From NCBI GenBank assembly GCA_041650835.1, contig JBAZKL010000002.1, forward strand, positions 14,477 through 78,476: a stretch of DNA of 64,000 bases. Reading direction: 5' to 3'. Made by a program: the position numbers and the translations under genes. The stretch comes from Candidatus Omnitrophota bacterium. GTDB lineage: Bacteria; Omnitrophota; Gorgyraeia; Gygaellales; Profunditerraquicolaceae. The notes below the pieces were generated by a model that saw only the letters and a program-made list of their open reading frames with translations, was not told where the DNA came from and made no database searches. Below are positions 1 through 15,139 of this stretch, in pieces (positions within the stretch are counted from its first letter, which is position 1; every line of letters begins with the position of its first letter).

Positions 1-41
1 ATAAGGCGATACCATTATATGAAACATTTATTTCGGAGTCA

Positions 42-1979
42 TTGTTTGATGATGTGTTGCGGGATTATTTAATTTGTCTCTACAAATCAAAAGAGCACAG
101 AAGCAAGAACCTCGAGAAATGTCTAACTATTTGCCAAAATCTTAGGAAATTAGGAAAATTTGTTCCTTTTACGTTCGAGTTGGAAGCGGCCATTTATGAG
201 GAAATGGATCGACTAGATGAAGCCATGTCTTTATACCTCGAACTGTCGAAGCGTGAGCCAAAGAATATTCGTCATAAACTAAATTATGCCAAAGTTATGA
301 TTGATATAGGAAGGGAAAAGGACGCGGGAATAAGACTGCTATATGAGGTTAAGGATGAGGTTGAAGACAAGGATTCCTTCCTTATTTTGGCGAGAGCATT
401 CTTAAAGATTCAAAACCATGACGAATCCATAAAGCAATTATTTAAAGCGTTGGAAATCGATTTCAATAATCCGGAGATCCAGCTGTTTTATATTTACACG
501 TTTACGAGCCGAAAAGATAAAAAGAGCGAAATGCTAGATTCCGAAACTGTGCGTGAAGATTTCTTTGTGAAGATTAAAAAGAATGGACACGATCAAGAAT
601 ACTTAGTTACTGCGAATCCTAAATCGTCGATTGCCAAATTCGAGTTATATAAGGAATCCGGTTTGGGTAAGGCACTTTACGGGAAAAGGGTTGCGGAAGA
701 AATAATAGTTAAAAATGAATACAGTGCAGATGATGTTATCAAAATAGTTGAGATTAAAAGTAAATACGTGAAGGCCTTCCAGAATATTTTAGATAATTTT
801 AATATTTCTTTTCCGGACAATAAGGCAATTTGGAAAGTTGAAGCGAGTCCGGAAAGGCTGAAAGATATGCTGAACAAATCGTCGGATAGATCAACCAAGA
901 TAATGGAGATGTATTTATCAAAGAATATTACTATCGGGGCGCTTTCTGCTTTTTCTGGAAGAAGTCTATTCGTTTGTTGGGGCGCGCTTATTGGACAGGG
1001 GTCTAAATTGTACTGTGCTACTGGCAGTGCTGTGGAGCAAAGAAAAGAACAGGAGATTATTCTTAATTCAAACAGGGTTATTATCGAGCCGATCGCTTTA
1101 TTTACTCTTGGTTTTTTAAATTTAGTGGATTTGCCATCAAAGATATTTTCGGAGGTCTATGTTCTTAAGGCTACCTTGGATGAGCTAGATATGGAAATCG
1201 TAGAGTTAAGCAAAAGCGAAGATGCGGGACTTACAACGCTTTTTTCTAAAGAAGGCAAAGCATTTCGACAAGAGATCTCTGCTGAAAATATTAAGATGAA
1301 AATAGATTTTCTTAAAAAGATGCGAGATTCGCAAGGGTTGATAACAACGGGATTAGAACACCCACTGGATGATAGTTTTAATGGCAAAGAAAAGATACTA
1401 GGTTTGCCATATATATATTCGATTCAAGCTTGTGTTGAAAAGCAAGCGCCGCTGTTTTGTGACGATGTTTTTTTTAGAGAATTAATTCGCAATGAGCATA
1501 AGATAGATTCTTTCGGTGTTCAAAATTTTCTTGTAGTTGCTCTTCAAAAGGGAATCATAGCCGAAAACGATTATTGCGATAAGATATTAGAATTAATAAA
1601 GATTGGATACTTCTATCTTTCTGTATCCGCAAAAATGCTTTTTTATTATGCGGAGAAAGACAGTTTTCAAATACAGCCGGGAAATGCGTTTGACATAGCC
1701 ACCGCAATTCTTGATTCAAGAGAAACATCTATTGAATCGCTGCTTGCAGTATTAACAGATTTTATGAAGCTAATGCTTATTGAATCCCTGCCCGATGAAA
1801 TCAAAGATAAATATTTACATTTAATCATAAGTCTTTTAGCAAAACGCGGATCGCCCCATAAAATGATTAAGATTTTCAGTCAAGTTCTCGCTAAGAAGCT
1901 TGGGTTAGCTGAGCATCTTATGGTACAGGTTAATAAGAAAATAGATCAGTGGATTAAAATTAATTACCCAATCGTGTGA
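42..1979 (+). CDS. Hypothetical TPR-like protein, AT-rich; possibly 5'-truncated by the window edge
   Basis: 645-aa ORF called from a TTG. The reading frame stays open upstream to position 1, so the true start may lie outside the window. Codon usage is strongly A/T-biased compared with every downstream gene. The N-terminus has TPR-like helical repeats. I recognise no catalytic motif with confidence. Confidence 0.6.
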   Translation: MFDDVLRDYLICLYKSKEHRSKNLEKCLTICQNLRKLGKFVPFTFELEAAIYEEMDRLDEAMSLYLELSKREPKNIRHKLNYAKVMIDIGREKDAGIRLLYEVKDEVEDKDSFLILARAFLKIQNHDESIKQLFKALEIDFNNPEIQLFYIYTFTSRKDKKSEMLDSETVREDFFVKIKKNGHDQEYLVTANPKSSIAKFELYKESGLGKALYGKRVAEEIIVKNEYSADDVIKIVEIKSKYVKAFQNILDNFNISFPDNKAIWKVEASPERLKDMLNKSSDRSTKIMEMYLSKNITIGALSAFSGRSLFVCWGALIGQGSKLYCATGSAVEQRKEQEIILNSNRVIIEPIALFTLGFLNLVDLPSKIFSEVYVLKATLDELDMEIVELSKSEDAGLTTLFSKEGKAFRQEISAENIKMKIDFLKKMRDSQGLITTGLEHPLDDSFNGKEKILGLPYIYSIQACVEKQAPLFCDDVFFRELIRNEHKIDSFGVQNFLVVALQKGIIAENDYCDKILELIKIGYFYLSVSAKMLFYYAEKDSFQIQPGNAFDIATAILDSRETSIESLLAVLTDFMKLMLIESLPDEIKDKYLHLIISLLAKRGSPHKMIKIFSQVLAKKLGLAEHLMVQVNKKIDQWIKINYPIV

Positions 1980-2201
1980 AAATAAATGCGAGAATAGTTT
2001 TCCGATATCAACCGCGCGGCGGTGATTGTGAATATTAGCAAGGCATTCGTTGATTGGCAGTAAATCTTTCAAAACCCCTGCATAAGCATCCCCCGAATTA
2101 TTACCAATTTGCGGTAACGACCCCATTGTCAAAATAATCCGTTGTTGTAAGATCAAGACAGACTCGCGGGACAGCTGATCACTGTTGCCGTTTTGCAGAA
2201 A

Positions 2202-2242
2202 GCCATTTCCAGTCGACTGGCCGGAGATGGCTTTTTCTTTTT
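2202..2242 (+). terminator. Rho-independent terminator
   Basis: GCCATTTCC...GGAGATGGC 9-bp stem with one T-G wobble. It encloses the perfect 12-nt palindrome CCAGTCGACTGG and is followed by TTTTTCTTTTT. Confidence 0.6.
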
Positions 2243-2244
2243 AG

Positions 2245-2650
2245 GGTTCGACACTTTGAAAAATATTGCGTGTTCATAGATGAGGGGGACATTTGAGCGA
2301 AAAAATCTGTATATACGCAGTAGGGTGCAACACTTTGGCAAAAAAGGGCGTATATACGCGGTAGGGGGTGTTACACTTTTCGATTTTTTGCGTGTTCATA
2401 GGTGAGGGGTGCGAAACTTTGAGCCTAAAAACGCAATAACTACTCTGAGGGGCAAAAAAGTTCCGACACTTTTCGGAAAAATCCGGAATATACGCTTAGG
2501 GAGTGAAACTGGTGAAGAAAGTGAAAATATTTCCGGCAGGTTTACCAAAAACATCGTATGTAGCTAGTAGAGGGGCTTGTGAAGTGAAAATAAATAAAAT
2601 ATTTCCGTCAGTTTTCCAGTTCTTTGCGTATGTAGCTAGTAGGAGGCAGT
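2245..2650. repeat. Iteron-like direct-repeat array (putative replication origin or regulatory region)
   Basis: Three families of direct repeats. (a) TTGCGTGTTCATAGRTGAGGGG at about 2266 and 2388. (b) ATATACGC-N-TAGGGRGTG at about 2310, 2352 and 2487, each followed by ACACTTT(T/G)-N-AAAAA; the ACACTTT motif occurs 4 times. (c) A ~50-bp unit ATATTTCCGnCAGnTTTnCCA...GTATGTAGCTAGTAGnAGG, present twice at about 2528 and 2601. Confidence 0.7.
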
Positions 2651-2656
2651 GAAACT

Positions 2657-2887
2657 ATGAAAGACAAGTGCTTTGAAGCGGGAAATCTCTATCTGGCTAC
2701 GTATTTGCTCTCTTGCGGGTTTGCTATGAGGGGCATTGAGGGATCGGGACGGCTCAAGAGGATCCTGTTTGACGACATCCCGGCCGTTCATAAGGCATGC
2801 GAAGAGTTTTTCGCCGATTCGGAGGCACGCAAGCTGTTTGACTGTTACCGGAGGGTTAAGGATTATTTATTTCAAAATGGAGTTTAA
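2657..2887 (+). CDS. Small hypothetical protein, translationally coupled to the primase
   Basis: 76-aa ORF with an AGGAGG Shine-Dalgarno 8 nt upstream. Its TAA stop lies 2 nt before the primase ATG. The overlapping ORF 2736..2954 is out of frame and rejected. Confidence 0.55.
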   Translation: MKDKCFEAGNLYLATYLLSCGFAMRGIEGSGRLKRILFDDIPAVHKACEEFFADSEARKLFDCYRRVKDYLFQNGV

Positions 2888-2889
2888 AA

Positions 2890-5256
2890 ATGGAAGACGA
2901 GAGAAGAAAAGAGAAGAGAAAAATGGAAGAGATCATACCGCAGGAATTGCTTAAGCTACCGAGCTGGGTTGGGTATCAGCTCAGGCGTAACAAAGGCCGC
3001 ATTGATAAAGTTCCCATGAACGTCCTGACCGGACGTCCTGCCAAAAGTAACGATCCCAGCACATGGACAGATTTCGAGACTGCAGTTGATTTGGTGAGCC
3101 AGCGCGGATATGCGGGTGTTGGTTTTATGTTTAGTCCGCCTTATGTGGGCGTGGATATAGACCATTGCGTCAAAGACGGAGCTATCGCGCCGTATGCGGT
3201 GGAAATCTTAAAGGCGCTCAATTCATATTCGGAATATTCGCCCAGCGGCACCGGCATTCATATTCTTTGTAAAGGCGAGATCGCCCGGGCATGCAAGATT
3301 TCAAAGATCGGGCTTGAGATTTATACCAAGGGCAGATTTTTTACCGTTACCGGCAATCGCCTTGAAAATTATCCGGCTGATCTTAACGAGTGCACTGATG
3401 CGCTAACCGCCATATTCAGCCGGGTTGTAGATAAAAGGCCCGCGGACGACATTTTTGCTTTAATCTCTAAAAGTAAAGACGCGGAGAGGTTTCAGCGGCT
3501 CTATTCCGGCCAGTGGCAAAACGATTATCCATCTCAGAGCGAAGCGGATTTGGCGTTAGGCAACAAGCTGGCCTTTTGGACTGGTAAAGACGCCGGGCGT
3601 ATGGATTCGCTTTTTCGCCAGTCCGGACTCATGCGGCCCAAGTGGGATGAGAAACATTTTGGTGACGGCCGGACCTATGGCCAATCGGTCATTGAAAAGG
3701 CAATCAGCGGGTGTAGTGAGGTTTATGGAGGAAACGGGGCTTCGGGGCCGGTTGCTAAGGCTAAGCTCACGCAGGGCGAGATCATTACCCGCGATTGCGA
3801 GGAGAGCATTAAGGACTTCTTTCGCGATCAGCATGGCAATGCTTTTGTGGTGCTTCCGGTGGAAAGCCATTTTGAGGTATGCCCGACAACGGGCGTGCGC
3901 TTTAGGAATTGGAAGGCGACTCGATTCCGTGATCGCTTTGGCGTACCGCCTAAGATTGAGGCACTTAATCAGGCACGGATTCAGGTTGAGGCGCGCTGTG
4001 GAAGTTCCCGGCAGGTTGAGCTCTTTAATCGAGTAGGCTGGCATAACGGGAAAGTTTATTACGACCTGACAACGCCGGACTATCGAGGTGTAGTTATCGA
4101 TGAAACCGGCTGGGACGTTGTGCCGTTGCCGCCGATATTCAGGCGTTATCAGCATCAAGCCGAGCAGGTGATTCCGGTTAAGGGCGGCGACCCTAAGGCG
4201 ATATTACGTTTCTGCAATGTTAATCCGGACGATCATTGTCTTTTCATGGTCGCCATCGCATCATTCTTCATTCCCAATATTCCGCATGTCATTTTAAGTC
4301 AGACCGGCGAGCAGGGCTCCGGTAAATCGAATAATTCCCGCAAGATTAAAGGCTTGGGCGATCCGTCCAAGGTCATGCTGATCTCAACTCCCAAAGAATT
4401 GGAGCAGGCGCAGATGACCGCGGAGAAGCACTGGATCAGCACCTTCGATAATATCTCCAAAATTTACGAGTGGTTTAGCGATTTCCTCTGCCGAGGCGTT
4501 ACCGGCGAAGGCGACATGAAACGCAGTCTTTATACCAATGACGACGAGTTCATTCGTTCATACAAACGGTGCTTTGTATTGAATGGTATTGGCACGTCTT
4601 TGTGGCGGGCGGATTTGCTCGACCGGGCCATTATCTTTGATATTCCGGTTTTAAAGAGGAGCCGAGCAGAAAAAACTATGGAAGACGAATGGCAACGGGA
4701 GCTTCCCGGGATTCTGGGTGGATTCTTTACTGCCATTTCAAAAGCAATGAATACTTTCTCGCAAGTTACCGGACATGAAAAGTTTCGCATGTCTGATTTT
4801 GCTCAATGGGGAGGCGCGCTGGCGGGGGCATTGGGTTATTCGCAGGATGAGTTTTTCAAAAAGTATCAGGAGTCAGTGGATCGTAAATGGCAGGACACCG
4901 CGGATGACAGCTCGTTTGCCAAGAGACTGATCGAACTCATGGATAAGCACGCAGGCTATTGGGAAGGCTCGGCCGCGGAGCTTTTGCACGAGGTAACCCA
5001 CGATGACGACGATGAGAAAGGCATGCCCAAGACCGCCAAGTGGCTTTCAACAGAGCTACTGCGTATTGCGCCGGTCATGCGTAATGTCGGAGTGGATATC
5101 GTAAAGAAAGACAAGCGCGAGCCAGGTACCGGCCGCAGGCTTTTTGTTCTTAGGCGAACCGAGTCAAAGTCGTGTGAGTACGGGTGTGAGGAAGGTGTGA
5201 GCAGAGGCGTGCTTTGTGAGGATCGTGCGGAGGTGGACAGTGACCGGCCGTTCTAA
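2890..5256 (+). CDS. Primase-polymerase (AEP prim-pol) / SF3 helicase fusion replication protein
   Basis: The N-terminus carries prim-pol motifs: VGVDIDH (hhDhD) and SPSGTGIHILCKG (SxSGxGxH). The middle region carries a Walker A motif, GEQGSGKS, typical of D5/P4-type helicases. The last ~30 codons are encoded by GTGTGAGG heptamer repeats. An alternative start at M12 (position 2923) is possible. Confidence 0.85.
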   Translation: MEDERRKEKRKMEEIIPQELLKLPSWVGYQLRRNKGRIDKVPMNVLTGRPAKSNDPSTWTDFETAVDLVSQRGYAGVGFMFSPPYVGVDIDHCVKDGAIAPYAVEILKALNSYSEYSPSGTGIHILCKGEIARACKISKIGLEIYTKGRFFTVTGNRLENYPADLNECTDALTAIFSRVVDKRPADDIFALISKSKDAERFQRLYSGQWQNDYPSQSEADLALGNKLAFWTGKDAGRMDSLFRQSGLMRPKWDEKHFGDGRTYGQSVIEKAISGCSEVYGGNGASGPVAKAKLTQGEIITRDCEESIKDFFRDQHGNAFVVLPVESHFEVCPTTGVRFRNWKATRFRDRFGVPPKIEALNQARIQVEARCGSSRQVELFNRVGWHNGKVYYDLTTPDYRGVVIDETGWDVVPLPPIFRRYQHQAEQVIPVKGGDPKAILRFCNVNPDDHCLFMVAIASFFIPNIPHVILSQTGEQGSGKSNNSRKIKGLGDPSKVMLISTPKELEQAQMTAEKHWISTFDNISKIYEWFSDFLCRGVTGEGDMKRSLYTNDDEFIRSYKRCFVLNGIGTSLWRADLLDRAIIFDIPVLKRSRAEKTMEDEWQRELPGILGGFFTAISKAMNTFSQVTGHEKFRMSDFAQWGGALAGALGYSQDEFFKKYQESVDRKWQDTADDSSFAKRLIELMDKHAGYWEGSAAELLHEVTHDDDDEKGMPKTAKWLSTELLRIAPVMRNVGVDIVKKDKREPGTGRRLFVLRRTESKSCEYGCEEGVSRGVLCEDRAEVDSDRPF

Positions 5257-5470
5257 ATGTGTGAGTTTGCTCACGTGTGCTCACGCTTGCTCACAGGCGT
5301 GCTCACAAGGTCAAGGCTACAGCCATCAAGGGGTTATGTATTGTTGTGAGGTTTGTGAGGCTAAATTCCTTCTCTTTTTAGAAATCAATAAATATATAGG
5401 AAGAGGCGTATACATCGCCTATGGATGGGCAGGTGTGAGGATAGCGATTTTAGCCTCACATTGCTCACAC
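5165..5470. repeat. Dense cluster of GTGAG(G/C) / (G)CTCAC heptamers (putative second iteron set or origin)
   Basis: At least 12 copies of GTGTGAGG, TGCTCAC or CCTCACA in both orientations within ~300 bp. One stretch has four tandem TGCTCAC copies at about 5267-5310. The cluster spans the primase stop codon. ORF 5216..5536 from the track is most likely an artefact of this repeat. Confidence 0.7.
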
Positions 5471-5663
5471 ATATGCTTACGGGTCCTTCGGAGGGGGTGT
5501 GGGCCGCGGGTCGGGCGAGGCGAAGTCTGTGAGTGATGTCGGATTTTCAAAATGTCGTGTCGTGGTCGTATGGGCGTATTTCGGGGTGTCCGGTTGACAA
5601 GGGATAAAAAAGGCGTTTTCCGTCGTGAAACCGGCTTAAATTTGGCTCAAAATCGCCTCAAAA

Positions 5664-5714
5664 GCGATGTCCTAAAATACGACAAAACCGGACATTTGCG
5701 ATGTCCGAATGTCC
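5664..5714. promoter_or_regulatory. Operator-like repeats: GCGATGTCC x2 including the palindrome GGACAT-N5-ATGTCC
   Basis: GCGATGTCC occurs at 5664-5672 and 5697-5705. GGACATTTGCGATGTCC (5690-5706) is an inverted repeat, and a third ATGTCC follows at 5709-5714. The site lies just upstream of the small ORF and the HTH gene. Confidence 0.4.
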
Positions 5715-5731
5715 TACTGTAGAAGAGAATT

Positions 5732-5929
5732 ATGATCAGGGAAGCGAGCACAATTAATGTGAAGGCGGTAACGCCGCGAGGCTGGGACGCTTTAGAGATA
5801 AAGCTAAAAGGAAGGGGTCTGTCCAGCGTGGAAATTCAAGAAGCTCGTAAATCATTCTTTGAGGGGATTGAGACATTATCAAAGATGTTTTTGGCAATGT
5901 ATTCGGCAGAGAAGAAACCGCTTGTATAA
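5732..5929 (+). CDS. Small hypothetical protein
   Basis: 65-aa ORF between the repeat region and the HTH gene. It has only a weak RBS and no recognisable motif. Confidence 0.3.
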   Translation: MIREASTINVKAVTPRGWDALEIKLKGRGLSSVEIQEARKSFFEGIETLSKMFLAMYSAEKKPLV

Positions 5930-5962
5930 GGTTGTATATTACGGTATACTGGGCACCATTAG

Positions 5963-6154
5963 ATGAGGGTGTCAAATATGAAAACATACTCCATGACAGA
6001 GACGGCAAAATTACTGGGCGTGCACCGGCAGACCATGATCAATTGGATCCGCAGGGGATGGGTTAAGCCCAAGCGTGATTATAAGGATTGGCCGGTGTTT
6101 ACGGACGAGTGTATCGCCAAGATTAAGGCATGGCGAGAGACGTTAAAAGGATAA
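5963..6154 (+). CDS. Excisionase-family / AlpA-like helix-turn-helix DNA-binding protein
   Basis: 63-aa protein containing TETAKLLGVHRQTMINWIRRGWV, the classic excisionase-family HTH signature. It sits immediately upstream of the recombinase; its stop is 1 nt before the recombinase ATG. Confidence 0.7.
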   Translation: MRVSNMKTYSMTETAKLLGVHRQTMINWIRRGWVKPKRDYKDWPVFTDECIAKIKAWRETLKG

Positions 6155-6155
6155 G

Positions 6156-7835
6156 ATGAGAGTAGCGTTATATACAAGGGTAAGTACAGAAGATCAGGCG
6201 CGCGAAGGTTTTTCGCTGGAGGTGCAGAGGACATATCTTTTGCAATACGCGAAAAATTTCGGCTGGGATGTTTTTTGCAGTATGTCGGGCCGGGATATTT
6301 ATATGGATGATGGTTATTCCGGCGGCAATATGGACAGACCGGCGTTGCAGAGACTTTTGTTTGACGCGCGCAATAAGCAGTTTGATCTGATCATGGTGTA
6401 TAAGCAAGATCGCCTAAGCCGTCGGCTTAAGGACCTGTTAGGACTACTTGAGGAGATTGATTCGCTGGGCATCGGGTACAAATCAGCGACCGAGCCATTC
6501 GATACCACGTCCAGCGCCGGGAAGATGGCGATTCAGATGTTAGGCAGTTGCGCGGAGTTTGAACGCAATCGCTTAGTCGAGAGGGTATTCCCGGGCATGG
6601 TGGTTGGTGTTAAAAGAGGTCACTGGCAGGGAGCGCGCTACGCGCCGTATGGTTACCGTTACAATAAAGAAGTCAAGAAACTCGAAGTCCATCCGGAAGA
6701 GGCAAAGATCGTTAAAGAGATTTACGCGATGTACATAAGCGGCACGAGCACTTCGCGGATCGCAGGACATTATTACAATCTTGGGATCCCTTCAAGACAA
6801 GGCGGACGATTTTATAATAAATTCATTTCCAATATTCTGCAGAGCAAGGTCTATTTAGGGATGCTGGTGTGGAATAGACGTCGCTATAACACAAAAGAAA
6901 AGACAAAGAACGGCGAAGGCAAAGGTTACAAGTATGTGAATAATGATCCGTCCAAGATTATTGAAGTACCGAATACTCACGAGCCGATAATTACGCAAAG
7001 AGATTTTGATGAGGCCAGAACGCTTCTCAAACGTAACCGCACCAATGGTGTGGTTAGATTCAGGAATAATGTTTATCAGCTTTCCGGTATTCTGAAATGC
7101 AATGAGTGCGGAGGCAATTACCGCGGAATCACCGCGACAGTTAATCATCGCACCAAAATGCGGCGGCCATGGTATCGTTGTTCTTCCAAAGGCATACCTC
7201 ATATTAAGTGTAGCAATAAATCTGTTACGGCTGACGCGATCAATAAGCAGGTTTGGGATATTGTAGAAGTCATCCGTCAGAATCTTCATGTGCTTGAGGA
7301 ACTGGGTGACATGATCAAACTTAACGCATCCGAGCCGGAGCAGTTGTATGTCGAGCAATTAGAGGATAAGGACGCGCTTCTTAAGAAGAATATCGAGAAG
7401 CAAAAGGGGATCTACGAGTTGTTTTCAGAGGATAAAATTAATCTCGCGCTCTATAAGGATAGGGCCGAGCTTTTGAGTAATGAGGAGAAAAAACTAAAGC
7501 AGGATATCAAGGCGATTCAGCTTAAGATTCTGGATAAGCGTAATTCCGTTAACCTTGTAAAGGCGACGCAGGATTTCCTTTTGAGGTTACGGAGCACGCC
7601 GGATGACCGCCAGTTGGATTATCTGGTCAAAACCTTTATGCGGATCATCTTTAAATCGATCCACATCCAGAATCAGGAGATCGTGAAGTTCGATCTAAAC
7701 GAGCCTTGGAAGACTTGCTATGAAGAGGGGATGAAATGGTTGAAAACGAGCGAAAAGACGACAATACAGGCGATTCCGGAGGCAAAAGCCCGAAGAAGTT
7801 ACGTGTGCTTTTGCGCACCTTCGGATGTCAAATGA
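6156..7835 (+). CDS. Large serine recombinase (integrase)
   Basis: N-terminal resolvase catalytic motif RVALYTRVSTEDQ. It also has a recombinase domain and a zinc ribbon (CNECGGNYRG...WYRCSS), followed by a long coiled-coil C-terminus. Total length is 559 aa. Confidence 0.85.
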   Translation: MRVALYTRVSTEDQAREGFSLEVQRTYLLQYAKNFGWDVFCSMSGRDIYMDDGYSGGNMDRPALQRLLFDARNKQFDLIMVYKQDRLSRRLKDLLGLLEEIDSLGIGYKSATEPFDTTSSAGKMAIQMLGSCAEFERNRLVERVFPGMVVGVKRGHWQGARYAPYGYRYNKEVKKLEVHPEEAKIVKEIYAMYISGTSTSRIAGHYYNLGIPSRQGGRFYNKFISNILQSKVYLGMLVWNRRRYNTKEKTKNGEGKGYKYVNNDPSKIIEVPNTHEPIITQRDFDEARTLLKRNRTNGVVRFRNNVYQLSGILKCNECGGNYRGITATVNHRTKMRRPWYRCSSKGIPHIKCSNKSVTADAINKQVWDIVEVIRQNLHVLEELGDMIKLNASEPEQLYVEQLEDKDALLKKNIEKQKGIYELFSEDKINLALYKDRAELLSNEEKKLKQDIKAIQLKILDKRNSVNLVKATQDFLLRLRSTPDDRQLDYLVKTFMRIIFKSIHIQNQEIVKFDLNEPWKTCYEEGMKWLKTSEKTTIQAIPEAKARRSYVCFCAPSDVK

Positions 7836-8983
7836 ACGTGCGGGATTCGGAGGTGATCTGCGGACTTTTAAAGAATGCCGGTTTCCAGATCGTCCAGGAA
7901 GAAGATGAAGCAGATGTAGTTATCTTTAATACCTGTTCTGTCCGTCAGCATGCCGAAGATAAGGTTTGGAGCGAAATAGGAAGAATAGCTAAATCGAGAA
8001 AAAAAGATTGCTTCGGCGCAAAAAACGCGCCTCGCAATGACACTCGTTGCGGTTATCCGATTATTGGATTGGTTGGATGCATGGCGCAGAATTATAAAGA
8101 AGCAGCCTTTGACCGCTCTGAATACCTCAATTTTGTCGTGGGGCCGTCAGATATAGATAAGATTCCCGGAATTGTTGCTAAAGTCGCCAGTCGCCAGCCG
8201 TCTGTCACCAGTTCAAATTTATTTGAAACGAAAATCTGGGAGACAGATGGAACTATCAGGCCGGAAGATGTATATCATAGCGGTTTTTATGAAGAAAAAG
8301 ACCACGCCTTTGTCGTTATATCCGAAGGCTGTTCCAATTATTGTTCTTATTGCGTGGTCCCTTTTGTGCGGGGAGAAATACACCATCGTCCGCATAAAGA
8401 GATCATGAATGAAATAAAACAGGCCCTCGATAGGGGGATCAGCCGTATTACGCTCCTGGGGCAGAATGTGAATGCGTATGGATATGAAGATGTTAGTTTC
8501 GTTAAGCTTGTTGAGTTCGTTAATGCCGTGAAAGGATTAAAAGAGTTCAGTTTTATTACGTCGCACCCGAAGGATACTTCGCTTGAGTTATTCAAAGCGA
8601 TGGCTGACCTGGAAAAACTGAAAAAATACCTGCATTTGCCTGTTCAGGCCGGCTCAGACAGGATCCTGAAATTAATGAATCGCGGGTATACTCAGAAATT
8701 TTATCTGGACTTGGCGGATAATTATCGTAGAATTGTAAAGGGTGGCGTATTGACATCTGATATCATTGTCGGCTTCCCTACGGAAACCCGGGAAGAGTTC
8801 CAGGATACCTATGACCTGGTTAAACGCGTAGAATTTAACGCGGCTTATATTTTTAAGTATTCTCCCCGTCCGCATACGCATGCGCAGCACCTGGTTGATG
8901 ATGTCGATAAACAGGAAAAGGCGCGCCGGCATAAGCTGGTTTTAGAGCTGCAGAAGGCGATCTCTAAGAAGGTCAAAAAGTAA
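7736..8983 (+). CDS. miaB: tRNA-i6A37 methylthiotransferase MiaB
   Basis: N-terminal KKLRVLLRTFGCQMN motif, comparable to E. coli KKLHIKTWGCQMN. Radical-SAM motif CSNYCSYC and a TRAM C-terminus are present. The first 100 nt overlap the recombinase 3' end in another frame, so the start codon is uncertain (ATG 7736 or GTG 7805). Confidence 0.85.
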   Translation: MVENERKDDNTGDSGGKSPKKLRVLLRTFGCQMNVRDSEVICGLLKNAGFQIVQEEDEADVVIFNTCSVRQHAEDKVWSEIGRIAKSRKKDCFGAKNAPRNDTRCGYPIIGLVGCMAQNYKEAAFDRSEYLNFVVGPSDIDKIPGIVAKVASRQPSVTSSNLFETKIWETDGTIRPEDVYHSGFYEEKDHAFVVISEGCSNYCSYCVVPFVRGEIHHRPHKEIMNEIKQALDRGISRITLLGQNVNAYGYEDVSFVKLVEFVNAVKGLKEFSFITSHPKDTSLELFKAMADLEKLKKYLHLPVQAGSDRILKLMNRGYTQKFYLDLADNYRRIVKGGVLTSDIIVGFPTETREEFQDTYDLVKRVEFNAAYIFKYSPRPHTHAQHLVDDVDKQEKARRHKLVLELQKAISKKVKK

Positions 8984-8997
8984 GGAGCAGGCTTAAC

Positions 8998-9810
8998 GTG
9001 AATAATGTTTTTTTCAATATGCGCGTAAATTTTATGAGTAATTCAAAAACAGCCTTGTTTGTTTTATTCTTTCTGCTTTTGACAAGGGATCTTTCTTTCG
9101 CGCTCAATCTTGAAAAGGTCAAGGTTGATTTTCTAAGCGGGGATTATAAAGCTGCCATTAAAGAGGGTGAAAAGATCCTTGCTGCCGCGGGACACGCCCC
9201 TGATATCGACCAGCTTTATTGCCTGCTTGGGCTTTCTTATTTAAAAGACGGCAATTATCTGCGTTCATCGGATATCTTTGAGATAATCTTAAAGGAATTC
9301 AAGAATAGCCCAACGAGGGAAGAGGCCGGCCTCGGCTTGGGGGATGCTTATTTCTTACAGAAAAATTTCGAAAAAGCGGATGCCTGTTATAGGGATATGC
9401 TCACCATAAAGCCGCAGACCAAGTATAAGGCGGCACTTTTCAGCCGTTTGAGTGAGACAGCATATAAACGCGGCGATGTCGAGAGCGGAAAAAAATTTGC
9501 CGATAAATTAAAGGAAGAATTTCCCCTTAACCTGGAATCGAGCATTGAAAAAGATATTTGCTCATTAGGGGAATTCTCCAGCGGCGCTTTTTACACGGTG
9601 CAGGTCGGCTGTTTTAGCAGCCTGACCAACGCCAATAACCTGCGTAATAAATTAAGCAAAAGCGGCTATGATGCTTTTTCAGAGGTGTCGAGCGTAAAGG
9701 GAAAGCCGCTCTATCGCGTGCGTGTCGGCAAGTTCAGCAAGCGTGATGACGCTGCCGCGTTAGAAAACAAATTGTCTCAAGAAGGATATCCCACTAAGAT
9801 TTCCCCCTAA
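8998..9810 (+). CDS. TPR / SPOR-domain protein (peptidoglycan-binding)
   Basis: Contains a signal-peptide-like hydrophobic segment, TPR-like repeats and a C-terminal SPOR repeat (YTVQVGCFSS...YRVRVGKF). An alternative start at M13 (position 9034) is possible. Confidence 0.6.
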   Translation: MNNVFFNMRVNFMSNSKTALFVLFFLLLTRDLSFALNLEKVKVDFLSGDYKAAIKEGEKILAAAGHAPDIDQLYCLLGLSYLKDGNYLRSSDIFEIILKEFKNSPTREEAGLGLGDAYFLQKNFEKADACYRDMLTIKPQTKYKAALFSRLSETAYKRGDVESGKKFADKLKEEFPLNLESSIEKDICSLGEFSSGAFYTVQVGCFSSLTNANNLRNKLSKSGYDAFSEVSSVKGKPLYRVRVGKFSKRDDAAALENKLSQEGYPTKISP

Positions 9811-12140: not shown

Positions 12141-12431
12141 TTGAGGATAGAAAAGAGGAGGGTCACGATGGGAACCTTTGATATTTACATCAGCCCTGAT
12201 GAACCGGTATATGTGATCAGCGTGGTGAGCAAACTGGTGAGCTTACCGGTGTGGACACTGCGCCAGCTTGATAAGGTGGGAGTGGTGAGGCCGCATCGTA
12301 TCGGCAAGAAAAGCCGGCTTTATTCATTGAAAGATGTTAAGAGGCTTGAATATATACATTATCTAATGGAAGAAAAACACGTGAATATAAGCGGGATCAA
12401 GTTGATACTTGAATTGGAAATAAAAGAATAG
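12141..12431 (+). CDS. MerR-family heat-shock regulator, HspR-like
   Basis: 96-aa MerR-type HTH (VYVISVVSKLVSLPVWTLRQLDKVGVVRP). It lies directly upstream of clpB, the usual HspR context. A possible TTGACA promoter sits at about 12108. Confidence 0.55.
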   Translation: MRIEKRRVTMGTFDIYISPDEPVYVISVVSKLVSLPVWTLRQLDKVGVVRPHRIGKKSRLYSLKDVKRLEYIHYLMEEKHVNISGIKLILELEIKE

Positions 12432-12448
12432 ATTTTTTTTGTTTTGTT

Positions 12449-12475
12449 ATTAGCACTCATGCATGTTGAGTGCTA
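12449..12475. promoter_or_regulatory. CIRCE operator (HrcA binding site), perfect consensus
   Basis: TTAGCACTC-atgcatgtt-GAGTGCTAA, with an exact 9-bp inverted repeat and a 9-nt spacer. It lies between hspR-like and clpB. Confidence 0.85.
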
Positions 12476-12523
12476 ATTAACGGATGAATTTAAAGGGGCG
12501 CTTTATAAAAAGAGAGGCAATAC

Positions 12524-15139
12524 ATGAGATCAGATAAGTTTACTGCTAAGTTACAGGAAGCGTTTCAGGACGCGGTAAGCCTGGCTACGGAATCGAACCA
12601 TCAACAGGTGGAGCCGGAGCATTTGTTCCTGATCCTATTGAAACAGGAGGACAGTATTATCGCCTCTGTTTTGAACGCGTTGGGCATACAGGCAGGCTCT
12701 TTTGTTAAATTGATCGAGGAGGAGCTGCAAAAGAAGCCTACGGTCAGCGGCGGGAACGCGCAGATCTATTTTTCTCCCCGGACTAACAAGTTGTTTAACG
12801 CGGCGAACAAGGAAGCGAATTTCCTGAAGGATGAATACATTTCCGCGGAGCATTTATTGCTGGCGGTTTTATCCGACCAGGAGGCGGTAGTGGCCAGGGA
12901 ACTTAAAAAAGCAGGCATTAATAAAGAAAAGATATTGGCCGCGTTGACGGATATACGCGGAAGCCATCGTATTACCGATGACACTCCGGAAGAGAAGTTT
13001 AAGGCCCTGGAAAAGTACGGGCAGGACCTTACCCTGCTTGCCGAGCAGATGAAGCTTGACCCGGTGATCGGCAGGGACAAAGAGATCAGGCGTTTGATGC
13101 AGGTTTTATCCCGGCGCACCAAGAATAACCCGGTTTTGATAGGGGATGCCGGAGTGGGGAAGACCGCTATTGTTGAAGGTTTGGCGCAGCGTATTACTTC
13201 TAAAGATGTTCCGGAGGGATTGAAGAATAAGCGCATTGTAGCCCTCGATCTCGGAAGCCTTGTCGCCGGCACTAAATTCAGAGGCGAGTTTGAGAACCGG
13301 CTTAAGGCTGTGTTGCGCGAGATACAAAGCAAGAACGGCCAGATAATCCTTTTTATTGACGAGATCCATACCATTGTCGGCGCGGGCGCCGCGGAAGGGG
13401 CTATTGATGCTTCGAATATGCTCAAGCCGCTCCTGGCGCGCGGACAGCTGCGTTGCATAGGCGCGACAACGCTTGATGAATACAGGAAATATGTTGAAAA
13501 AGACAAGGCTTTGGAGAGAAGGTTCCAGAGTATTTTTGTAGGTGAGCCCTCTGTCCAGGATACGGTGGCGATCCTGCGCGGTTTGAAAGAAAAGTACGAG
13601 GTGCATCACGGGGTGCGGATACTGGATTCCGCGTTGATCGCGGCGGCAACGCTTTCCGACCGCTATATTACCGACAGGAACCTTCCCGATAAGGCGGTGG
13701 ACCTGATTGATGAGGCTGCTTCCCGGCTGCGTATTGAAATAGACAGTATGCCGGTAGAGATCGATGTGGTCCAGAGAAAGATCATTCAGCTTGAGATCGA
13801 ACGCCAGGCTTTAAAAAAGGAAAAAGATAAACTGTCCCTGGCGCGTTTGAAGAAGATCGAACAGGAACTGGATGATCTGAATAAGGAGATAAATATTAAG
13901 AAGCAGCATTGGGAAAAAGAAAAAGCGATCATACTTAAGATCAAGGATGTCCAGTCTAAAACAGAAGAGCTTAAGAATGAAGCCGCCGCCGCGGAGAAGG
14001 TCGGCGATCTGGATAAGGTCGCTGAGATCAAATACGGCAGGCTGGTGGCGCTGGATAATGAATTGAAGAGGCATAATGAACAGCTTAAGGAGACGCAGAA
14101 AACCGTCAGCATGCTGCGCCAGGAGATAGGCGATGATGATATCGCTGAAGTGGTCGCGGAATGGACCGGTATCCCTTTGACCAGGCTTAAGGAAGCCGAG
14201 ACCGCGAAATTAGTGAAAATGGAAGAGCGCTTAAAGACAAAGGTTATCGGACAGGACCAGGCGATCGAGTCTATCGCTCATTGCGTCAGGCGGTCCCGTT
14301 CGGGTTTGTCCGACGAATCGCATCCTATGGGGTCATTTATTTTTATGGGCCCGACCGGTGTCGGCAAGACAAAGCTGGCAAAGACGCTTGCCTGGTTCTT
14401 GTTTGACGACGAAGAGGCGATGGTGCGCATCGACATGTCGGAATATATGGAGAAATTCAGTGTTTCCCGGCTGGTGGGAGCGCCTCCCGGCTATGTCGGT
14501 TACGAGGAAGGAGGGCAGTTAACGGAAAAAGTAAGGAGAAGGCCCTATTCGGTCGTGCTTTTTGATGAGATCGAAAAGGCGCATCCGGAAGTCTTTAATC
14601 TTATGCTTCAGATATTGGACGAAGGTAAGATCACTGACAGCCAGGGCAGGGTGGTTAATTTCCGCAATACCGTTATTATTATGACGTCGAATATCGGAGC
14701 GGAGATCATCCATCAGCATAATTTGATCGGGTTCAACGGCAAGAAGCAGGCATTGAATTTTGAAGATATGAAGTCCGGCCTTCTTGCCGAAGTCAAGAAA
14801 TTCTTCCGTCCTGAATTCCTGAACCGGATAGATGAGATAATCGTTTTTAATCCGTTAAGGAAAGAGGAAATGGGGAAAATCGTCGATATCGAATTGGAAC
14901 CGGTGATCAGGCGTTTAGCGAACCAGGGGATACGTTTGGAAGTGACTTCCAAGGCAAAGGAATTTCTGGTGCAGAATGGTTTTGATATCAATTTCGGCGC
15001 CAGGCCTTTGAAACGCACGATCCAGAAGTACATCCAGAACCCTCTTTCGCTTAAAATACTTGATGGAACGCTCAAGGAGGGAGAGGTAGTAATAGCTGAT
15101 TTTGACACGGCTAAAACCATCATTTTCCGAAAGGGTTAG
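12524..15139 (+). CDS. clpB: Chaperone ClpB (AAA+ disaggregase)
   Basis: 871 aa. Clp N-domain, two AAA modules (GDAGVGKT and GPTGVGKT) and a long middle coiled coil. Confidence 0.9.

Follow-up and report, generated by a model that had tools for sequence, protein, structure and literature searches.

The stretch of DNA analyzed here (64,000 nt; the window) comes from a Candidatus Omnitrophota chromosome and, at positions 1 to 7824, most probably carries the right-hand 7.8 kb of an integrative defence island that replicates itself and is 22,177 bp long. The 5.6 kb flagged in an earlier note is the conserved replication and integration backbone of this island. That note had listed a repeat array, a small ORF, a prim-pol/helicase gene, a heptamer cluster, and a helix-turn-helix (HTH) gene with a 559-aa large serine recombinase (LSR), and all five features are found at the coordinates it gave. 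We also support its view that a mobile element is integrated at the 5' end of miaB and that this element combines an LSR and a prim-pol/helicase replicon with two repeat clusters. A self-contained module of about 5.6 kb it is not: the element measures 22,177 bp from attL to attR and takes in both the TPR-PIN gene (1-1979) and another 14 kb of defence genes, and the shared backbone starts at about 2094-2131 rather than at 2202. All genes discussed with window coordinates lie on the + strand.

The att sites, which the earlier note had left undefined, could be placed at both ends. The attR core, ACCTTCGG, occupies 7817-7824, with the crossover dinucleotide GG at 7823-7824; the codon it falls in specifies the Gly of TFGCQMN, a motif conserved in MiaB. 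Following the target-restoration logic of dusA and target-regenerating tDNA islands, we found attL at L109 1162-1169 (contig k141_2267425), 14.35 kb upstream of the window start on the same public contig. The junctions read ACCTTTGG followed by C at attL versus ACCTTCGG followed by A at attR. The base after GG is likewise C in L110, whose LSR is 99% identical, and in empty-site relatives; in the L036 copies, divergence starts directly after CGG, and similarity ends at 7836 against L108 and at 7851 against L107. Provided that neither junction has mutated since integration, strand exchange is predicted to be confined to GG, a mapping that is comparative rather than biochemical and draws on attL, attR, the reconstructed attB and attP, and relatives.

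When rejoined in silico, attB reads ...KVFVKTFGCQMNVRDSEV... and restores a continuous miaB that, over 264 nt, matches the L004 empty site at 88% DNA identity, while the rejoined attP yields an LSR of 578 aa, extended by ...AGRCPPYRRLMASLAEALVGAD up to its stop. The rebuilt LSR 3' end matches LSR forms that are not joined to miaB (e.g., L122), which are 575-603 aa long. Both reconstructions keep open reading frames, and the LSR tail at attL has neither a frameshift nor a stop. A second, independent case is the 9,980-bp element of L064, whose LSR is just 40% identical and for which both reconstructions are equally clean. Empty sites, which the earlier note had proposed to look for, exist in L004 (MiaB about 80% identical) and L005 (72%), where no LSR is present at miaB.

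The integrated, shortened LSR (6156..7835, 559 aa; N terminus YTRVSTEDQ) has all three domains of its family, namely a resolvase catalytic domain with the Ser nucleophile (PF00239, residues 3-157, E = 4.6e-33), the Recombinase domain (PF07508, residues 180-294, E = 3e-21), and the zinc ribbon (PF13408, residues 309-368, E = 1.3e-11), and it matches the integrase family phrog_95 (E = 4e-111). Its final codons (part of Asp, Val, and Lys) and its stop are supplied by host DNA. Sequence comparison places attP within the 3' end of the LSR's own gene and attB in the Gly codon of MiaB TFGCQMN. The segment that serves as the replacement miaB start, MVENERKDDNTGDSGGKSPKKLRVLLRTFG (7736..7824), is encoded by the element in another frame over the LSR 3' end and is preceded by a GAGGGG ribosome-binding site at 7724-7729; the LSR ORF and the miaB frame overlap by 100 nt. 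From the Cys codon of TFGCQMN onward, the rest of miaB (7825..8983, with UPF0004 and Radical_SAM domains) is derived from the host, and similarity to the miaB of empty-site relatives starts at the att core. Although the host miaB differs, L035 has the very same replacement segment, and L067, L011, and L031 have conserved versions of it.

The sequences thus show that attR fuses the ribosome-binding site, start codon, and 29-codon N terminus of the element to the body of host miaB, so that miaB stays intact. In the corresponding fusion at attL, the native miaB start, displaced there, runs into the 22 codons severed from the end of the LSR gene, hence an integrated LSR of 559 residues versus 578. 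The lost 22-aa tail is conserved across this LSR family, although across tail variants the conservation comes down to a short motif, and the tail may be dispensable.

To the left of the backbone lies a variable cargo slot, which ends within 2094..2249. Similarity to relatives starts at window position 2094 (L107), 2131 (L108), or 2086 (L085), and the genes to the left differ. The cargo comprises an AbiE-like pair, a TPR-PIN pair, and a type I restriction-modification (R-M) system in which genes for a PIN protein and a protease are embedded. The window itself begins within the TPR-PIN gene (1..1979, the last 645 of 951 codons; PF20698, PIN-TPR-GreABC, E = 7e-10), which is complete on contig k141_2267425, with a 327-aa TPR partner upstream of the window. 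A terminator-like hairpin with a T-run is present at 2203-2241, in the left edge of the backbone.

The replication protein (2890..5256, 788 aa) combines a primase-polymerase with a helicase. Its AEP prim-pol part spans residues about 14-279, shows the DID motif in YVGVDIDH, and is of the NrS-1 type, in which the AEP core is followed by an NrS-1 helix-bundle domain (PF22763, residues 216-279, E = 5.7e-30; PDB 6A9W and 7RR3, E = 2e-35 over residues 26-279). Profile searches thus recovered both the serine-recombinase and the primase domains expected by the earlier note. The helicase part (residues about 300-760; Walker A GEQGSGKS) is a divergent D5/SaPI-Rep-like SF3 helicase. Residues 300-788 have no sequence match in Pfam, NCBIfam, or PDB and do not classify as D5_N, DUF5906, or Pox_D5, all three of which are matched by the helicase variant of L067. 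The SF3 AAA+ fold is present with Walker A, Walker B, and motif C, and the closest solved fold is that of SaPI5 Rep, at a sequence identity of about 9-10%.

Directly 3' of this gene lies a candidate replication origin (5257..5480). Four TGCTCAC repeats at 5268-5306 are spaced by ~10 nt, in helical phase, and an A+T-rich spacer of 77 nt lies between inverted TGTGAGG/CCTCACA arms (5345-5368 and 5446-5469). The heptamers are far denser here than in the rest of the 64-kb window, which has nine TGCTCAC copies in all, six of them in 5197-5468. All elements with a prim-pol at least 75% identical carry CTCACA/TGTGAG repeats (6-10 copies; TGCTCAC 4-5 copies, 1 in L135). At 59-68% prim-pol identity, such repeats are missing from 8 of 10 elements, L139 and L153 having 5-8. 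The heptamer cluster largely tracks the helicase variant, and with phased repeats beside an A+T-rich stretch and co-variation with the initiator, the region has the features of a predicted iteron-type origin.

Upstream of the replication gene is a second repeat region. A unit of about 41 nt, GACACTTT-N-GTATATACGC-N-TAGGGG, is directly repeated six times at 2250..2505 and forms a regulatory or iteron-like array ahead of the DUF5659/prim-pol operon; several of the units contain the palindrome CGTATATACG. The array is kept in close relatives with varying copy number, and its right part (from about 2443) is retained along with DUF5659 and the prim-pol N terminus even in combination with another helicase type (L067). 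A 72-nt unit that ends in GTATGTAGCTAGTAG-GAGG follows as two direct repeats at 2506..2650; relatives have 1, 2, or 3 copies of this unit, and in the window the last copy includes the ribosome-binding site of the DUF5659 gene. That gene (2657..2887) encodes the 76-aa protein for which the earlier note had suggested a profile search, and it matches PF18903 barely at threshold (23.7 bits versus a cut-off of 23.6). Its stop lies 2 nt ahead of the prim-pol ATG, and the two genes are translationally coupled. The identical 76-aa protein is found on at least 13 contigs from many samples, with the prim-pol next wherever the contig continues.

Between the candidate origin and the LSR are two small genes. 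Operator-like ATGTCC/GGACAT repeats (5660..5731) directly precede the orf65-HTH-LSR set and are also seen upstream of orf65 in L161 and L067. A 220- to 290-nt segment related to this operator region occurs ~150 nt inside attL (L109 1317-1545), with further GGACAT/ATGTCC repeats near the left end at L109 1641-1700, and the related left-end segment is present in L190, L120, L129, and L171 as well. orf65 (5732..5929, 65 aa) has no match in Pfam, PHROG, or NCBIfam. Homologues lie shortly upstream of the LSR in most related loci, including L101 and L102 (L064 has none), separated from it by just the HTH gene or its replacement. orf65 partners the LSR both in island-type loci and on contigs with phage virion genes. 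By position it is a candidate directionality or regulatory factor, and the HTH protein is likewise a candidate for the directionality role. The HTH gene (5963..6154), which stops 1 nt before the LSR start codon, encodes a predicted 63-aa MerR/HTH_17-like DNA-binding protein with marginal family matches: MerR_1, 23.1 bits (cut-off 21.6); HTH_17, 25.7 (27); TIGR01764, 19.6 (28.8); and excisionase-type PHROGs at E = 4e-5 to 1e-4. With HTH_17 and TIGR01764 below their cut-offs, the excisionase label that the earlier note gave this protein is putative. On the contigs with phage virion genes, a 190-aa ORF takes the place of the HTH gene.

The miaB-sited backbone is found in dozens of contigs from very different hosts. 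The order LSR then miaB is seen at 45 of 80 metagenome LSR loci and in 13 of 80 GTDB species representatives, and backbones with 84-96% DNA identity occupy miaB in hosts that have only 35-79% MiaB identity with the window. Near-identical backbones carry different left ends, indicating that the family recombines: the window's island has a class-2 left end, while L111, with backbone proteins 91-98% identical, has a class-1 tail. Many genomes have attL-like relics without an integrase upstream of miaB, which implies that decay at this site is common, and some P-P' junctions may be tandem arrays instead of free attP sites.

The relatives also bear on whether this is one element and whether it still moves. 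A compact 5.6-kb element beside an unrelated chromosomal defence island would account for the stretch from about 2094 to 7824 being the sole part common to all relatives and for the varying genes to its left, but it is hardly credible. No att-like junction was seen at 2090-2250 or across the 14 kb from there to attL, the sole attL lies 22 kb from attR, and the cargo is conserved with the backbone across differing hosts. The TPR-PIN pair is 88.6% DNA-identical in L067, whose MiaB is just 59% identical at the protein level, and the window's contig and L108 have 83.7% DNA identity in HsdR of the type I R-M genes and likewise in the backbone; between the same two, miaB has no DNA-level similarity save one 111-nt stretch at 69%. 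These observations contradict the compact version. There is also a small chance that the island is immobile, as a decayed prophage or a chromosomally fixed island with a phage-derived integrase. Modules closely related to its integrase module (84-86% LSR identity) occur on virion-gene contigs, and the integrase-less relics point to common decay upstream of miaB, but every backbone ORF is intact, both att reconstructions run in open frame without damage to the LSR tail at attL, and unrelated hosts have this architecture at 84-96% DNA identity.

For a mobile 22-kb island, the question becomes that of its carrier. The earlier note had seen no capsid, packaging, or conjugation genes, and this holds for the whole 22 kb, in which we found no capsid, packaging, relaxase, coupling-protein, or type IV secretion system genes. 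Lacking transfer genes of its own, the island would have to hitch-hike; an ICE was rejected, as no relaxase, coupling protein, or mating-pair-formation genes lie between attL and attR. It is possible, if rather unlikely, that it is a phage satellite that depends on an L101/L129-type helper phage for induction, replication, and packaging, in the manner of PICIs and PLEs. Its layout of integrase, small regulators, primase-helicase, and origin 3' of rep, its defence cargo without transfer genes, a helicase fold nearest to SaPI5 Rep, and the PLEs as a precedent for LSR-bearing satellites (PMC9410903) are all consistent with this. Moreover, an LSR 84-86% identical and an orf65 homologue occur on contigs that encode a small terminase subunit and an internal virion protein like T7 gp14. 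L129 has the orf65/190-aa/LSR set of those contigs together with the LSR tail of class 2 and, at its left end, a regulatory segment of 220 nt with 76% identity to that of the island. Yet the virion-gene contigs are fragments without host assignment, a shared integrase module may reflect mere modular exchange, and the 22 kb contain no terS, capsid-size, or packaging-redirection gene and no recognizable pac or cos, so that by gene content the island does not qualify as a PICI/SaPI satellite. Movement as an integrative mobilizable element by conjugative relatives of the same family is distinctly unlikely. In L161 and L142, the LSR gene leads via a P-P' junction into TraG_N, Replic_Relax, coupling-protein, and VirB2- and VirB3-like genes; these are the only class-1 tails with readable flanking DNA, and L111 shares that tail class. 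L156 and L166, in turn, have a Replic_Relax homologue in the place that the prim-pol takes in other elements, directly upstream of orf65. The window's class-2 island, however, has no relaxase, coupling protein, or recognizable oriT, and even L161 and L142 show no visible VirB4 ATPase, making their self-transfer putative.

For the integrative island as reconstructed here, the following cycle can be proposed. The comparison shows that the LSR recombined attP, in its own gene's 3' end, with the miaB attB at GG; excision, probably via orf65 and/or the HTH protein, would restore both genes and free a circle. The prim-pol/SF3 helicase would, judging from the architecture, copy this circle like SaPI Rep, starting at the heptamer repeats that lie directly 3' of its gene as an origin. 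The 41- and 72-nt repeats upstream would act as control sites, and so would the ATGTCC operators, which are present at either end. Defence cargo in the variable slot may be how the island pays its way, with phage-virion contigs bearing the same integrase module, or the conjugation-gene relatives, as possible carriers. More tentatively, and with the chances somewhat against it, the 3' coding end may, throughout this LSR family, be attP, a possible switch through tail loss, and an accretion platform at the miaB start all at once. If so, one 100-nt stretch encodes both the LSR C-terminal linker and the replacement MiaB N terminus, and a single exchange at GG cuts the LSR tail and puts miaB translation under element control; tail loss could then be a built-in activity or direction switch set by integration state. 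Because attR still mimics attB, related islands, phage- or conjugation-gene relatives, and single-gene inserts could stack at miaB and decay there, which would explain the P-P' junctions, attL relic arrays, and frequent contig breaks at this site across Omnitrophota.

PLEs have their own replication initiator, of the RepA_N type, and origin and lack virion genes. The island is likened to them by architecture alone, as an LSR island, and differs in using a prim-pol/SF3 helicase; a helper phage is proven for PLEs and would be putative for the island. We know of no report of a PLE attP inside the integrase gene. The earlier note had regarded the serine recombinase as exceptional, but LSRs also integrate PLEs, islands of about 17-18 kb of which some target a protein-coding gene (PMC9410903), and are the integrases of 27 among 937 tycheposons and cryptic elements (bioRxiv 10.1101/2020.12.28.424599). 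Its comparison with PICIs stands for the architecture and fails for packaging or capsid-remodelling genes, which are absent from the whole element. SaPI origins consist of short repeats around an A+T-rich spacer just 3' of rep, an arrangement that the island shares. SaPIs and PICIs differ in their tyrosine integrases, Stl repressor, and terS or capsid-remodelling genes, none of which the island has, and in helicase sequence (identity about 9-10%).

SCC elements target an RNA-modification gene and lack transfer genes; they insert at the 3' end of rlmH, and their recombinase gene is unsplit. The island resembles SCC (SCCmec) in LSR integration, and CcrB is the best NCBIfam match of its LSR (E = 3e-57), but the host phylum differs, and assignment as an SCC cassette recombinase (CcrA/B/C) was rejected, with scores of 194.6 bits for CcrB and 147 for CcrC far under the cut-off of 900. 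dusA-specific and tDNA islands use tyrosine integrases rather than an LSR, and in the dusA-island literature the MiaB-like gene rimO is just a rare target, in Polaromonas; the island further differs in that the coding sequence of its recombinase itself carries the replacement 5' end as an overprint. An attP within the integrase ORF has parallels in Mx8 IntP, where integration alters the int 3' end (PMC6070905), and in SSV-type elements, where it splits the gene (PMC7253208), but these are tyrosine recombinases. A literature search found no report of a serine integrase with attP in its own gene, which is not proof of absence. Compared by description, tycheposons and pipolins differ in hosts, replication proteins, and targets (mostly tRNA genes) and are similarly modular islands with a site-specific integrase, a primase/helicase or polymerase, and a variable cargo or defence slot (PMC11551731).

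The stop codon of the large serine recombinase (LSR) gene, at 7833-7835, falls inside CAAATGAAC, the Q-M-N of the conserved MiaB motif TFGCQMN, and the 559-aa LSR open reading frame (ORF; 6156-7835) overlaps the miaB reading frame, with its ATG at 7736, by 100 nt. The earlier note had called for comparison with relatives lacking the insert, and in two of these, L004 and L005, likeness to the window starts only at ACCTTCGG (7817) and runs rightward. On the element side, DNA of the relative L035 is identical to the window through 7847 despite a host miaB just 64% identical, and similarity ends at 7836 in L108 and at 7851 in L107. Two element-arm copies in L036 are identical through ...TTCGG and differ from the very next base. 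The base after GG is C in L110 (LSR 99% identical) and in the empty-site relatives, and A in the window attR.

In eight metagenome loci and in the IMG/VR contig L101, no miaB follows the LSR gene. These unjoined genes continue past ...TTCGG(A/C)TG for a further 16-44 codons, yielding proteins of 575-603 aa. Their tails are of class 1 (DEWxDAYR...FLKELF) or class 2 (GR(C/W)xxYxxxMxxLAEA), with further variants in L101 and some others, and all share the pattern (D/G)(R/E)W..Y...hydrophobic. Loss of this tail on integration may have a functional consequence, possibly as a directionality switch, which is open to direct in vitro test.

The left junction was located on L109 (contig k141_2267425, the same public contig as the window's left part), where a class-2-tail-like segment occupies 1162-1230. 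The displaced miaB start there, MSREMNDKNTPNPKRPSISRLKRSSKSLGQDSELQPKVFVKTFG, is nearly the same as the native L004 N-terminus; at attL it runs to ACCTTTGG and then CTGGCCGTTGTCCACCCTATAGACGC.... When the host arms of the two sites, B and B', are joined, a continuous MiaB results, whose DNA matches that of L004 at 88% identity across the junction. When the element arms, P and P', are joined, the LSR lengthens to 578 aa, its end, ...CAPSAGRCPPYRRLMASLAEALVGAD before the stop, being close to that of L122, which is not joined to miaB. The sixth core position is T in attL and C in attR, and the base following GG differs too, C in attL against A in attR; because attL and attR differ on both sides, the exchange is confined to GG (7823-7824), assuming no later mutation. 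With attL and attR both located, the island measures 22,177 bp and the element of ~5.6 kb proposed in the earlier note gives way to a far larger one; the Shedu gene at L109 1-839 falls beyond its limits. In an unrelated case, the 9,980-bp element of L064, the LSR is only 40% identical and the cargo is CBASS plus restriction-modification (R-M); it gives two clean reconstructions of the same kind. Comparison at the sequence level establishes the site, crossover, extent and both rebuilt genes, as well as domain content and horizontal spread, and the island is a real, well-bounded mobile element.

Several other approaches to the left end were set aside. A search with the attR 20-mer ACNTTYGGNTGYCARATGAA, allowing up to 4 mismatches, found no match in the window, in the related loci L003/L084 or in L109, because attL carries P' and not B'. 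The P' arm of L101 found no match either; the tail class of the island differs. A conjugation module at the left end, suggested by L111 (backbone proteins 91-98% identical, class-1 tail), is ruled out by the real attL, the class-2 tail and the lack of T4SS genes. Loci without an LSR were rejected as clean empty sites, as many carry attL-like relics, and the clean comparator for this host is L004. No dyad symmetry was obvious by eye in attP or attB.

ORF listing and sequence reading recover every item named in the earlier note, and profile searches find both the serine-recombinase and the primase domains it expected. The LSR has the full set of Resolvase, Recombinase and Zn_ribbon_recom. The 76-aa ORF (2657-2887), for which the note had proposed a profile search, matches DUF5659 at threshold and stops 2 nt before the 788-aa primase-polymerase (prim-pol)/helicase ORF (2890-5256), which has an NrS-1 polymerase helix-bundle domain. 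A 475-nt non-coding stretch then leads to a 65-aa ORF (orf65, 5732-5929). The predicted excisionase-family HTH gene is there as a 63-aa ORF (5963-6154), but its family assignment has only weak MerR/HTH_17 profile matches behind it, and an exact-sequence look-up of the protein returned no record. An Rfam scan of window 1-9000 gave no match, a tRNA scan found no tRNA, and a promoter/terminator consensus scan gave a site number not above that of shuffled sequence.

From attL rightward, the island begins with a non-coding region bearing ATGTCC/GGACAT repeats, followed by an AbiEi_2/NTP_transf_8 pair, a NinI-like phosphatase gene and a 148-aa ORF. Next come a type I R-M block (HsdM, PIN_12, HsdS, Trypsin_2, a 174-aa ORF and HsdR, in that order), a 327-aa TPR protein and a 951-aa TPR-PIN protein, whose C-terminal portion (PF20698) is the 645-aa ORF at 42-1979, and then the backbone that ends in the LSR. 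The Trypsin_2 protein is the PADLOC candidate PDC-S45 (E 2e-94), the sole PADLOC match among the cargo. The earlier note saw no capsid, packaging or conjugation genes in the window, which holds for the whole 22 kb: no island gene matched capsid, terminase, portal, relaxase, coupling-protein or T4SS families. Cargo varies in a slot from HsdR to about 2094-2131, which holds AGS_C and DUF4238 genes in L107, a DEAD helicase and a DprA-like gene in L108, and a TPR-PIN pair as in the window in L067 and L141. The R-M operon, upstream of the window at L109 4840-13588, is interrupted by the PIN_12, Trypsin_2 and 174-aa ORF genes; its HsdR has a weak Peptidase_S24-like match, and the HsdS-protease-HsdR order recurs in L108. 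An 83-aa minus-strand ORF (1905-2156) has no family match; the backbone's left edge in L085 and others retains its 5' part (MGSLPQIGNNS...).

Over residues 14-279, the protein can be aligned to NrS-1 prim-pol structures at E 2e-35 and to the SaPI5 primase-helicase at E 6e-28. Helicase residues 300-788 have no family or PDB sequence match and no Pfam model; the family that they define comprises at least 180 protein clusters, mostly from Omnitrophota among the few source names given, and its members are fused to several types of primase N-terminus. Plasmids of Methylobacterium, Methanothrix, Stanieria and Streptomyces, among others, carry homologues of the helicase domain (3790-5256) that are ~30% identical. 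L067 and similar relatives carry a canonical D5_N/DUF5906/Pox_D5 helicase at the same position; where a prim-pol gene is visible, the window type is found in 21 loci and the D5 type in 18.

Directly 3' of the prim-pol/helicase gene is a candidate origin, a TGCTCAC/CTCACA cluster in which four copies keep helical phase and a 77-nt A+T-rich spacer lies between inverted arms. TGCTCAC occurs nine times in the 64-kb window, six of them within 5197-5468. CTCACA/TGTGAG repeats, at 6-10 copies, are present in every element with a prim-pol at least 75% identical, and 8 of the 10 elements with a prim-pol 59-68% identical lack them, L139 and L153 having 5-8. Such co-variation is, for the most part, what would be expected of a cognate origin. 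The right-hand part of the 41/72-nt array is kept with DUF5659 and the prim-pol N-terminus regardless of helicase type; its copy number varies, it contains palindromes and it overlaps a ribosome-binding site, and we infer a control or incompatibility array rather than an origin. In the mechanism that we propose, the island would excise as a circle, which the prim-pol/helicase would replicate from 5257-5480 under control exerted via the repeats.

Homologues of orf65 lie shortly upstream of the LSR in most relatives, though not in L064; they include the contigs with phage virion genes, which have a 190-aa ORF in place of the HTH protein. In the window, L161 and L067, orf65 has ATGTCC/GGACAT repeats ahead of it. 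A related segment of 220-290 nt, located ~150 nt inward of attL, is present in L190, L120, L129 and L171 as well, and more GGACAT/ATGTCC repeats stand just ahead of the island's first gene (L109 1641-1700). It is plausible that one regulator acts at both island ends, and orf65 and the HTH protein may each have a role in controlling integration. In three loci without an LSR, a 129-160-aa ORF directly upstream of miaB (L019 6962-7444, L041 9499-9891, L066 1068-1457) has a region 44-54% identical to the island HTH protein and could be either a host regulator or a relic.

Use of the miaB site is widespread. An LSR lies directly upstream of miaB in 13 of 80 GTDB species representatives, and 45 of 80 metagenome LSR loci have LSR then miaB, with host MiaB 35 to 79% identical to the window's. 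Contigs start no more than 250 nt upstream of miaB in 19 of the 80 species-representative contigs, several at the same codon (L007, L021, L023, L026, L027, L032, L035, L050, L052 and 10 more), which fits assembly breaks from mixed site occupancy. Upstream of miaB, many loci without an LSR have between one and three attL-like relics, in each of which a short miaB-like start is followed by TTYGG and then by what is left of an LSR tail (L005 4438, 7496 and 8641; L017 542 and 1612; L022 1591 and 2493; L051 9121; L076 7430; and others), which suggests repeated integration and decay. Elsewhere a single gene without an integrase separates such a relic from the current miaB start (L017 1590-2560, L051 9121-10001, L038 8025-10035), of ~250 aa and SAM-methyltransferase-like by eye in L017 and L051 and of 588 aa in L038; these inserts are either deletion remnants or cassettes moved in trans. 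As LSR loci, relics and single-gene inserts recur there, the miaB start is a heavily used, insertion-accumulating site. A reading of the genes after the L159 LSR as a single bounded 17.5-kb tandem element is ambiguous: the same genes lie upstream of the L190 element, and loci without an LSR have an NhaP-like gene near miaB. In L036 (1-5171), the two element-arm copies are inverted, ~85 nt long and 99% identical; they lead into two different miaB 5' regions, 73% identical overall, and an LSR on the minus strand precedes one of them, an arrangement that is either an inversion or an assembly chimera. Host genes after miaB in the window (12141-15139 and downstream) form an ordinary housekeeping/heat-shock block: an SPOR/TPR protein, miaA, hflX, a MerR-family gene, clpB, hrcA, grpE, dnaK and dnaJ.

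Judged by its miaB relatives, the host belongs to Candidatus Omnitrophota. Omnitrophota are known almost solely through metagenomes, and to our knowledge their mobile elements are essentially undescribed. The island resembles in kind the site-specific, self-replicating cargo islands already known as PLE, SaPI/PICI, SCC, tycheposons and pipolins (PMC9410903; bioRxiv 10.1101/2020.12.28.424599; PMC11551731). Islands that rebuild the target gene they split are classic (PMC4383910), and the dusA 5' end is a known island target (PMC4482086). Whereas attP lies within a tyrosine-recombinase gene in Mx8 and SSV-type elements (PMC6070905; PMC7253208), here it lies within a serine-recombinase gene. In open-access text, where absence is weak evidence, we found no description of a serine integrase whose own gene contains attP, of a target-gene N-terminus overprinted on an integrase C-terminus, of miaB as a phylum-wide integration target or of such an element in Omnitrophota, and no paper there pairs Omnitrophota with integrative and conjugative elements. 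A 2026 complete-genome preprint reports variable loci rich in recombinases and R-M, with no mention of miaB, serine recombinases or attB.

We see the main interest of the island in its integration logic and its phylum, above its gene list. At this locus the att sites are defined exactly and a crossover dinucleotide is identified, the active form of the integrase can be rebuilt, and the repeats, DUF5659, prim-pol/helicase and origin make up a candidate minimal replicon; genetic tools for an uncultivated phylum could draw on these parts. Its target is a radical-SAM motif kept across hosts with MiaB only 35-79% identical to the window's, and an LSR with so conserved a target could interest broad-host or programmable integration. 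As one integrase module is found both in replicating defence islands and on contigs that carry phage virion genes, and as conjugation genes adjoin two relatives, the miaB site offers a natural system in which to study the circulation of defence genes.

These same relatives bear on how the island travels. The IMG/VR contigs L101 (IMGVR_UViG_3300029286_003022) and L102, with LSRs 84-86% identical and attP intact, encode a T7 gp14-like internal virion protein, with two large ORFs next to it, and a small terminase subunit, and helper-phage packaging of the island is a tentative possibility; tblastn of all L101 ORFs against the loci gathered by then matched L102 only. Mobilisation by conjugative relatives appears unlikely. 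In L161 (11677-17354) and L142 (2390-7959), an intact class-1 long tail is followed by TraG_N, Replic_Relax, a 779-aa coupling protein and VirB2-like and VirB3-like genes, with RelE/HTH or RadC genes next, and no VirB4 was seen in these regions; the layout represents either attP in a free form or a neighbour in tandem. Junctions of P with P' also occur in L111, L159 and L171, and they may likewise be free circles or tandem arrays. That the island has stopped moving altogether we consider quite improbable. L101 also carries a 192-aa tyrosine recombinase and an MBL-fold nuclease.

In ENA assembly ERZ27247363, contigs k141_2267425 and k141_1683600 share exactly 141 nt inside the HTH gene (window 6007-6147). 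The overlap marks a branch in the assembly graph that probably stems from a second, related element in that sample, where k141_2050039 represents a further variant.
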